A DNA stretch of 985 bases from Escherichia coli (GTDB lineage Bacteria; Pseudomonadota; Gammaproteobacteria; Enterobacterales; Enterobacteriaceae), in the NCBI RefSeq assembly GCF_003334385.1, contig NZ_QOWN01000138.1; one strand, given 5' to 3'. The stretch's first letter is position 1. Every line of letters begins with the position of its first letter. The translations under genes and the position numbers were made by a program. The notes under the pieces were generated by a model that did not search any database, was not told the origin of the DNA, and saw nothing but the letters and a program-made list of their open reading frames with translations. Positions 1 to 985 of this stretch are shown here, piece after piece.

Positions 1-985
1 GCTGATTGCCGCCAGTGTTCTCCTTGTGTGGATGTTCAGCGCCTTCCATTTCCTCCGGATCATCTTCCTGAACTTCAACCTGATACTCTTCATCGAATGT
101 TTCTTGGTATGTTGCGTCGCCCATCACCGCGCCACAATCAGGGCAGTTGCCGCCGCCGGTCTGACCGCAGGCGGTGCAGGCTTTTTCCACTTCCTGTTGC
201 GCCACTGGTTCAGGCTGTTTCGTTTCTGGCTCGTTTTGTAACGCATTTGGACTGTTTTGTTCCGCTTTTTGGTAGTTCCGTTCCGATTCATGCTGGTTCT
301 GGTTCACAGAATCGCGGGTCTGGATCCCCTTAACCCATTTCGGATCATTCGGGTCACTAATCCCTTCAACAAATTCACCACGTGATGCAGCAAGCAACTT
401 ATCGGCGTCAGGCTGGCTGATATTGGCTGCCTGCATAATTTTGTTTACTTCGTCAGCGGTAACTTTTATCGGCTCTGGTTGTTCTGAATCTTCAGCGGTA
501 TCTACATTTTGCGGTAAGCCCGTGTATGTGCCATTTTTTCGGGCAAAATATTCTTCTTTTGTGATTTCAGTGGCGCCAGCAGCCAGTGCCTTATCCAGAC
601 CAGAAAGTTTGTTTGCGCGACCGTATTTTTCTCCGTCCTTATCTGCGAAGAGGAAATAGAACGGCCCCTCACGCTCTACAGATGGTTCAGCTTCCGGCGC
701 GGTTTCATTTTTTGGGATATCAGATACCTCAGTTTCTACTGCATCAGTTTGTGTTTCTGATGACTGGAGAACATCAACAGTGCCCAGGTCTGTTTCTTCA
801 TTCTCAAACACGCCCTTTGTCGTCAGGTATTCGCAGATATATTTGTTCAGTGCTACGGGATCTTTGTGAATGTCGATCGGACGCTCACGGACAAGGCCAA
901 AAATAGTTTGGCGGTCGTAGCGAAGGGCATCAGGCTGTTTGCGCATTGATGCCGAGATACGCTTCCAGTCTTCGCGGTCGTTGTC
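1..985 (-). CDS. recE: Internal fragment, partial at both ends, of a RecE-like exodeoxyribonuclease VIII family protein (Rac-type prophage recombination exonuclease); non-catalytic central region. Codons run from 985 down to 2.
   Basis: Seen in sequence: reverse-complement frame starting at 985 is open for all 328 codons; translation has protein-like composition with acidic linker segments and a CxxC...CxxC motif. From memory, not a search: the stretches [29 protein letters not shown], ACxACGQTGGxNCPDCGAVMGDATYQETFDEE and DPEEMEGAEHPH closely match the central region of E. coli K-12 Rac prophage RecE, which lies just upstream of its C-terminal nuclease domain. The start codon must lie beyond position 985 and the stop beyond position 1. 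Confidence 0.8.
2..121 (-). other. Acidic low-complexity tract (GDATYQETFDEEYQVEVQEDDPEEMEGAEHPHKENTGGNQ), probably a disordered linker before the downstream domain
   Basis: Seen in sequence: about 14 D/E and one K in 40 residues, with no hydrophobic core pattern. This corresponds to the segment that, as I recall, immediately precedes the RecE catalytic domain. Confidence 0.5.
134..178 (-). other. Four-cysteine CxxC-x7-CxxC motif (CTACGQTGGGNCPDC), candidate zinc-ribbon or zinc-knuckle
   Basis: Seen in sequence: residues 270, 273, 281 and 284 of the window translation are Cys (tgc at 176-178 and tgt at 134-136 on the reverse strand bracket the motif), with a Gly-rich intervening loop. The spacing fits small Cys4 zinc-binding knuckles. 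Metal binding is inferred, not shown. Confidence 0.5.

Follow-up and report, generated by a model that had tools for sequence, protein, structure and literature searches.

A conserved mini-domain between acidic linkers of an Escherichia coli prophage exonuclease, shared with RecE-type phage proteins

Introduction

RecE, the exonuclease VIII of the Rac prophage of Escherichia coli K-12, ends in a PD-(D/E)XK nuclease, and the function of its N-terminal region was still listed as unknown in a 2023 review (PMC11611040). A survey of lambdoid phages (Zheng et al. 2025, PMC12315714) described genes for DnaQ-type nucleases in the vicinity of int and also mentions nuclease-less 'RecE-2' proteins, without dissecting them. 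Here we analyze a stretch of 985 nucleotides of E. coli DNA (contig NZ_QOWN01000138.1 of assembly GCF_003334385.1), referred to hereafter as the window, which encodes on its minus strand residues 282-609 of an 823-aa lambdoid-prophage protein that, unlike K-12 RecE, ends in a DnaQ/Rv2179c-like 3'-5' exonuclease domain. The subject of the analysis is a small module in the non-catalytic region of this protein, for which an earlier note, based on the letters of the window, had suggested a discrete small domain of unknown function between acidic linkers.

SHOCT (PF09851) provides a further point of comparison. This domain spans ~30 residues and consists of two helices, with no indels in the helices or in their connecting loop (PMC3581485). 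Like the module analyzed here, SHOCT is tiny, of unknown function and attached to many different enzymes.

Evidence for a conserved, folded mini-domain

The flagged peptide, FYFLFADKDGEKYGRANKLSGLDKALAAGATEITKEEYFARKNGTYTGLP, is encoded at positions 491-661 of the window on the minus strand and corresponds to window residues 109-165, or residues 390-446 of the full protein, whose numbering is used hereafter. Residues 389-440 contain eight aromatics among 52 positions and carry a net charge of +1, whereas the flanking tracts (residues 343-388 and 441-463) contain no aromatics among 69 positions and carry net charges of -12 and -5. The difference in aromatic counts (Fisher's exact test, p = 8e-4) and the contrast in charge confirm the contention of the earlier note that this aromatic/hydrophobic cluster is unlike its flanks.

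A HMMER search with the 60-aa segment as query against 1.84 billion cluster representatives returned 25 proteins at E <= 1e-3, comprising E. coli fragments and full-length proteins of 482-977 aa. In the full-length matches only the module aligns (55-75% identity), and the flanks are unrelated, acidic and of low complexity. An alignment of 32 sequences, spanning 37-92% identity, includes as invariant residues G388, P389, F390, Y391, R404, A405, N406, K407, L411, G418 and E421, with E385, R386, G399, G403, I422, E425, E426 and K431 nearly so. The resulting pattern, here termed the GPFY-RANK module, covers ~50 residues and reads [ED]-R-x-G-P-F-Y-[FYW], a hairpin, G-R-A-N-K, a helix and G-x-x-E-I-[TS]-x-E-E-[YH]. 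The window sequence, which was also the query that recovered the family, holds every invariant residue of the alignment. Across homologs, the conserved block extends from E385 to ~Y435 (window 524-676, minus strand). The boundaries proposed in the earlier note miss five conserved N-terminal residues (E-R-x-G-P) and run ~11 residues too far into the downstream linker.

The fold of the module was predicted with AlphaFold2 (AF2) on a 68-residue construct, using the 32-sequence alignment (protein residue numbers equal 380 plus the construct position). The mean predicted local distance difference test score (pLDDT) was 78, with values of 84-92 over construct residues 10-52 (protein residues 390-432) and low values in the tails, and the five models agreed with each other (mean pLDDT 75-78). 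The predicted topology is beta-beta-alpha-beta-alpha, with beta1 at construct residues 10-16, beta2 at 19-25, alpha1 at 28-37, beta3 at 39-42 and alpha2 at 44-52. A Foldseek search against AFDB50 yielded 29 matches at E <= 1e-3, all of them E. coli/Shigella relatives, with TM scores of ~0.8 normalised to the query. These relatives superpose on the module, indicating that the AlphaFold DB models have the same fold within longer chains. A Foldseek search of BFVD with the module returned nothing at E <= 0.001. Structure prediction, which the earlier note had proposed as a check, hence produced a compact and confident fold with low-confidence tails. AF2 on the single full-length sequence gave a mean pLDDT of 34, with low values also for the known exonuclease domain, and was not used as evidence of disorder.

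The module, its predicted elements and its flanking linkers are placed in the window as follows, with pN/pS denoting the ratio of non-synonymous to synonymous proportions of differences:

524-676, minus strand: conserved mini-domain, residues 385-435 (EREGPFYF...ARKNGTY), from the alignments, AF2 pLDDT of 84-92 and pN/pS of 0.088
641-661, minus strand: predicted strand beta1, residues 390-396 (FYFLFAD), first arm of the hairpin (DSSP on the AF2 model)
614-634, minus strand: predicted strand beta2, residues 399-405 (GEKYGRA), second arm of the hairpin, ending in the invariant RANK motif (DSSP on the AF2 model; alignment)
578-607, minus strand: predicted helix alpha1, residues 408-417 (LSGLDKALAA; DSSP on the AF2 model), with one hydrophobic face kept and the exposed face variable in the alignment columns
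563-574, minus strand: predicted short strand beta3, residues 419-422 (ATEI), with the invariant E421 and the near-invariant I422 (DSSP on the AF2 model; alignment)
533-559, minus strand: predicted helix alpha2, residues 424-432 (KEEYFARKN), resembling the SHOCT motif [IL]T.EE[FY].A[KR]K (DSSP on the AF2 model; SHOCT comparisons)
677-802, minus strand: upstream acidic low-complexity linker, residues 343-384, with a charge of ~-12 and no aromatics, not conserved among family members (composition; pN/pS)
464-523, minus strand: downstream acidic linker, residues 436-455 (pN/pS 0.64; AF2 pLDDT below 50 at construct residues 60-68)

Selection along the protein was assessed with Nei-Gojobori proportions on 75 distinct, codon-aligned E. 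coli copies of the gene (805-831 codons), with the following results:

N-terminal residues 1-257: pN/pS 0.27
Residues 258-342: pN/pS 0.21
Upstream linker, residues 343-387: pN/pS 0.77, column identity 0.74
Module, residues 388-435: pN/pS 0.088 (pN 0.026, pS 0.30)
Downstream linker, residues 436-455: pN/pS 0.64, column identity 0.69
Residues 456-503: pN/pS 0.24
Zinc-ribbon region, residues 549-575: pN/pS 0.21
Exonuclease domain, residues 641-815: pN/pS 0.23

No other part of the protein is constrained as strongly as the module. Synonymous divergence in the module (0.30) is as high as elsewhere (0.20-0.33), which rules out that a nucleotide-level element causes its conservation. The predicted fold, the conserved counterparts, the purifying selection and the existence of homologs without the module all support the proposal of a discrete small domain, and we hold with high confidence that the flagged segment is a real, conserved and folded unit.

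Distribution of the module

Two scans of viral contigs identified ~390-405 loci, mostly in E. coli prophages and including some 35 diverse ones; the first scan recovered near-identical E. coli copies only, and the diverse loci came from the scan with a reordered alignment. Word-indexed homolog searches with the segment or the alignment recovered only short, often frameshifted E. coli fragments. A scan of one genome per species, which used a single narrow peptide pattern and hence under-samples the taxonomic range, detected seven loci, in Escherichia albertii, Pantoea gossypiicola, Superficieibacter electus and contaminated metagenome-assembled genomes. The latter (L085, L087 and L089), labelled Proteobacteria, Lachnospiraceae and Collinsella, have short contigs with a copy of the E. 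coli prophage gene (88-97% identity), and these occurrences likely reflect binning contamination and not true hosts. Counterparts of the segment, for which the earlier note had suggested to look, are hence present at 42-92% identity in many phage proteins, in which the acidic flanks are not conserved.

Of 5426 complete E. coli genomes, 3620 contain the module DNA; a single genome may hold up to six copies, and one O157:H7 strain has it at five places. The whole window was matched in 4734 genomes, leaving ~1100 with relatives only, in which module DNA was not detected; these probably carry RecE-like genes with the neighbouring segments. Three large repeat proteins with Ig-like repeats 'NGEFTFEFVDKAGNKGT' (P0053, P0054 and P0056) were considered as relatives and rejected, given that three to four repeats of each match the module only over its first half (33-40% identity). 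Their similarity is limited to a hairpin-like 'FTFEF.D..GN.G' pattern resembling GPFYFLFADKDGEKYGRA, and was judged to be a convergent beta-hairpin pattern, consistent with the predicted hairpin.

A portable cassette in proteins with a RecE-type scaffold

BLASTP comparison with K-12 RecE revealed that residues 470-625 of the prophage protein are near-identical to a RecE region whose residues 460-590 comprise a conserved bead, a CxxC...CxxC motif and an acidic tail. RecE lacks the module, and an unrelated acidic linker aligns in its stead to residues 382-441. K-12 RecE is therefore a homolog without the segment, of the kind that the earlier note had proposed to seek, in spite of its strong alignment downstream. 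The placement of the segment in a non-catalytic region was likewise borne out, with the sole catalytic domain located at residues 642-813.

The module occurs together with several C-terminal ends. It is joined to the DnaQ-like domain in the E. coli 823-aa type (L001:4158-6629) and to RecE PD-(D/E)XK nucleases in L037 (2855-5815, 987 aa), L062 (2855-5554, 900 aa), P0044 and P0046, with P0044 matching positions 596-862 of the NCBIfam RecE model NF007259 (E = 3.5e-57). In ~25 loci it is joined to a third type of C-terminal domain, and in P0049/L092 to a C-terminus without a recognisable domain. It also follows two different subtypes of the upstream region. L037 and L062 share almost identical N-terminal regions of 540-626 residues, module included, with L001, and carry two different RecE-type nucleases at their C-termini, which points to a recent swap of the C-terminal domain by recombination in the linker region, as read from the sequences. 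The module is thus a portable cassette in Enterobacterales phage proteins that combine a RecE-type N-terminal scaffold with different C-terminal ends. The DnaQ-type genes reported near int (PMC12315714) agree with the window gene and with the P0049/L092 type, and the accessible parts of that report do not describe the mini-domain or the linker 'beads'.

The identity of the third C-terminal domain was addressed through its similarity to known families. An assignment to Rad52/22 was rejected, with a Pfam E-value of only 0.078 and no match in the PDB sequence search, and the domain was left as faintly Rad52-like. In 36 of 40 diverse loci (L090-L126), the gene with the module is directly followed by another of 167-197 codons, which starts at or overlaps the stop codon of every gene of the third type and is not found next to the DnaQ or RecE types. 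Its product may be similar to Siphovirus Gp157, which would fit a role of the third C-terminal domain as a recombination (annealing) protein. As a candidate partner of the module this neighbour was discarded, because it follows the third C-terminal type and not the module.

Comparison with described domain families

The window sequence yielded no Pfam match on the module even at E <= 10, NCBIfam returned nothing on the flagged segment, and the best hit of a PDB sequence search (E = 0.034, to the tail of uS2) was judged to be due to chance. This agrees with the earlier description of a domain of unknown function, and literature searches did not reveal a description of the module. It constitutes a small domain family that has not been described before, in modular phage proteins of a known kind.

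The sole lead to a described family is a sub-threshold resemblance to SHOCT, which lies in the second half of the module (L..L...A.G..EIT.EEY.ARK). This half is like the SHOCT signature (L..L..L...G.IT.EEF.AKK). Both present a conserved glycine before I/L-T, an EE-aromatic pair and a basic pair, and the SHOCT pattern G-x-[IL]-T-x-E-E-[FY]-x-A-K-K appears in the module as G418..E421-I-T-x-E-E-Y-x-A-R-K. Membership in the SHOCT family was nonetheless rejected: none of the 32 members matched PF09851 at E <= 0.001, and seven did so at E <= 0.1 (best 0.03). The SHOCT peptide of F0QBY7 (PMC3581485, Table S1) scored 6.2 bits against the module HMM, a value reached by two of 2000 shuffles, and required a 2-residue gap. 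Alignment of the module with 75 confirmed SHOCT sequences, a set of low diversity, using hhalign gave P = 0.0017 at a probability of 15% over 11 columns (ItkEEyqArK / LTQEEFDAKKA). The absence of indels in SHOCT is not matched by the module, in which two extra residues between the glycine and I/L-T form the third predicted strand, and which also presents an additional N-terminal beta-hairpin. Furthermore, SHOCT lies within ~50 residues of the C-terminus in ~89% of its carriers, whereas the module is internal (residues 385-435 of 823, and 350-540 in relatives of 700-990 aa). On these comparisons, the SHOCT likeness is a motif-level resemblance of the last helix and not demonstrated homology.

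Two RNA-binding folds were also considered and rejected. Of the four-stranded RRM/qRRM fold (b1-a1-b2-b3-a2-b4), the module covers only one half (beta2-beta3-alpha2-beta4), and the RNP1/RNP2 motifs are absent from it. The N-terminal domain of bL9 (NTL9) presents the same order of secondary structure elements and no sequence similarity. The qRRM and NTL9 likeness, with scores below significance, is a topological analogy and not membership.

Possible function of the module

The analysis established the module itself and where it begins and ends, together with a predicted fold, strong purifying selection and shuffling between architectures. We tentatively propose, as a nearly balanced judgement on the whole statement of fold and function, that the module serves as a docking site for a common partner, probably a protein. 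The module would be an autonomously folding mini-domain of ~50 residues between two tethers, the disordered and strongly acidic linkers. Its putative conserved surface, formed by the hairpin base (GPFY, RANK), by beta3 (E-I) and by the first part of alpha2 (EE-Y, A-R-K), would bind a partner common to all contexts, most probably a host or phage replication/recombination protein, and docking would deliver the C-terminal enzyme, of whatever type, to the place where it acts. A folded bead between acidic disordered linkers, invariant while the upstream subtype and the C-terminal enzyme change, suggests a tethered binding module. In the alignment, the conserved residues cluster at the hairpin base, beta3 and the start of alpha2, and variation is seen at the tip of the hairpin and on the exposed side of alpha1.

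A more specific version of the docking proposal, which we regard as rather unlikely, is that the partner would be a conserved Enterobacterales host factor, such as the C-terminal tail of SSB, the sliding clamp or a different protein of the replisome or of repair, and that the module would direct the exchangeable DNA-end-processing enzymes of phages (RecE nuclease, DnaQ-like exonuclease, annealase-like domain) to where they act. If true, host-factor docking would provide the first concrete function for part of the RecE-type N-terminal region. The protein is encoded by one of the commonest prophage genes of E. coli, with module DNA in two thirds of complete genomes, and its 640-residue non-catalytic part has no annotated domain. 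As the most constrained part of the protein, and exchanged between DNA-processing enzymes of three or four kinds, the module of 50 residues offers a small and well-defined experimental handle on what RecE-type scaffolds bind, and would merit its own entry in domain databases, even if it holds no surprise of principle.

Several observations weigh against docking as the function of the module. No neighbouring gene co-occurs with it across all architectures, and no partner was found among these neighbours. For a domain of this size, folding alone could require many of the invariant residues (GPFY, RANK, E, EE), and the conserved surface is deduced from the alignment pattern combined with secondary structure. 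The alignment supplied to AF2 was shallow (32 sequences), and the agreement between AF2 and AlphaFold DB models is not fully independent, since both derive from AlphaFold. Lastly, the weak structural neighbours of the module, with scores below significance, are RNA-binding folds (halves of qRRM domains and the L9 N-domain), which would also allow for nucleic-acid binding.

An alternative that we consider improbable is that the module forms a small nucleic-acid-binding domain, which would hold single-stranded DNA, double-stranded DNA ends or RNA and feed the C-terminal exonuclease or annealase. The net charge of the core ranges from -2 to +3 (mean +0.7), and the flanks average -7.4 and -4.3 per 40 residues; a near-neutral core within acidic flanks suggests that a protein ligand is more likely than DNA.

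Self-association is a still more doubtful explanation. The module would in this case dimerise or oligomerise the protein, or aid its assembly, by edge-strand pairing of the three-stranded sheet or packing of the SHOCT-like helices. For its size, the module has an unusually high number of exposed aromatic and hydrophobic residues (eight aromatics among 52 residues). An oligomerising role has been proposed for the SHOCT-like motif, the RecE nuclease domain forms tetramers (PMC11611040), and dimers are common among DEDDh enzymes. However, the sole experimental test of oligomerisation by SHOCT was negative (PMC3581485), the catalytic domains oligomerise unaided and K-12 RecE is functional without the module.

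Membrane localisation has been proposed for SHOCT-like domains (PMC11237479), and the module could by extension be a divergent domain of this kind, through which the enzyme would be anchored to the inner membrane face, a possibility to which we assign very little weight. The seven members with Pfam matches up to E = 0.1, the bit score rarely attained by shuffled sequences and the hhalign P-value speak for such a relationship. They are countered by the lack of any significant Pfam match among the members, the low hhalign probability over 11 columns, the 2-residue insertion, the extra beta-hairpin and the internal position of the module, and membrane anchoring of SHOCT is itself a prediction.

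The proposal that conservation stems from a nucleotide-level element (such as a promoter within the gene, an RNA structure, a site of recombination or a second gene overlapping on one of the two strands) is effectively refuted, in spite of other open reading frames (ORFs) overlapping the segment (423-659, plus strand, and 502-672, minus strand in a different frame), because synonymous divergence is normal and non-synonymous divergence lowest in the module, the protein motif is 42-60% identical in distant relatives with differing DNA, and Rfam finds nothing in the segment, its single match in the window being at chance level and outside it.

Host protein and gene context

The minus-strand frame 0 is open over all 328 codons of the window in the reverse-complement translation, and leaves the window at both ends, which accounts for its absence from the program-made list of ORFs. 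Megablast searches revealed that the window is 99.9% identical to part of a 2472-nt gene present in thousands of E. coli chromosomes, where it is annotated as 'exonuclease' or '3'-5' exonuclease', and that the phages HannyBb, PhiR42_1 and Tritos match it at 99.4-99.7%. The gene belongs to the early left operon of lambdoid prophages and adjoins xis/int.

The sole Pfam domain of the 823-aa protein is the C-terminal Rv2179c-like DEDDh/DnaQ-like 3'-5' exonuclease (PF16473), which spans residues 642-813 (model positions 2-177 of 177, E = 5e-67) and falls outside the window, which stops at residue 609. PADLOC likewise matches the C-terminus to DEDDh (E = 1.8e-5) and yields no other match for the protein. 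PHROG 2082 spans the whole protein, and the NCBIfam RecE model (NF007259, PRK09709) covers residues 246-623 through profile positions 271-600, which correspond to its non-catalytic part. An identification of the protein as RecE/exodeoxyribonuclease VIII was rejected, with an NF007259 score of 282.7 bits against a cut-off of 1269 and an Rv2179c-like C-terminus. The phage records PV340562.1 and OV696610.1 label this same protein 'exodeoxyribonuclease VIII' and 'exonuclease VIII, ds DNA exonuclease'. The label does not fit the protein, in which the RecE nuclease domain is absent and DEDDh is present, and was probably carried over through the common non-catalytic region.

Many database entries of the gene (P0002-P0034) and many ORFs at its loci are short, frameshifted or truncated, with frame switches inside or just after the module, which suggests that prophage copies are frequently pseudogenised or affected by assembly errors. 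In E. coli E2865 (L002:6702-9660), xisR, located just downstream of the exonuclease gene, is split by the IS66-family element ISCro1 (tnpA, tnpB, transposase).

Other elements of the scaffold

Beyond the module and its linkers, the window encodes three further conserved elements:

803-985, minus strand: end of the N-terminal region, residues 282-342, conserved (pN/pS 0.21 over residues 258-342; PHROG and NCBIfam RecE matches) and helical only in a low-confidence model
311-463, minus strand: next conserved bead, residues 456-506 (BLASTP against K-12 RecE; C-terminal sequences; pN/pS 0.235 over residues 456-503)
131-178, minus strand: zinc-ribbon-like CxxC-x10-CxxC motif, residues 551-566, CTACGQTGGGNCPDCG, nearly identical in K-12 RecE (pN/pS 0.21 over residues 549-575)

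The bead contains a motif (window 326-403, minus strand; residues 476-501) that is common to K-12 RecE and recurs as RGE[FY]VEGISDP.D.KW in proteins of the third C-terminal type (L111, L117, L126, L091, P0041 and P0050). To judge from these occurrences, the motif is a second short element that is portable, and it occurs independently of the module. The CxxC-x10-CxxC motif may bind a metal, as its cysteine pattern suggests. It is followed by a conserved acidic tail, and this stretch, which corresponds approximately to residues ~518-590 of K-12 RecE, represents another unannotated bead. A third short element, G.G.FS[IV][DE]GL[ML]G (e.g. HGAGRFSIDGLMSEQ), is absent from the E. coli 823-aa protein and is located in linkers downstream of the module in many relatives (L090-L126, P0042-P0052), among them the RecE-nuclease types P0044 and P0046.

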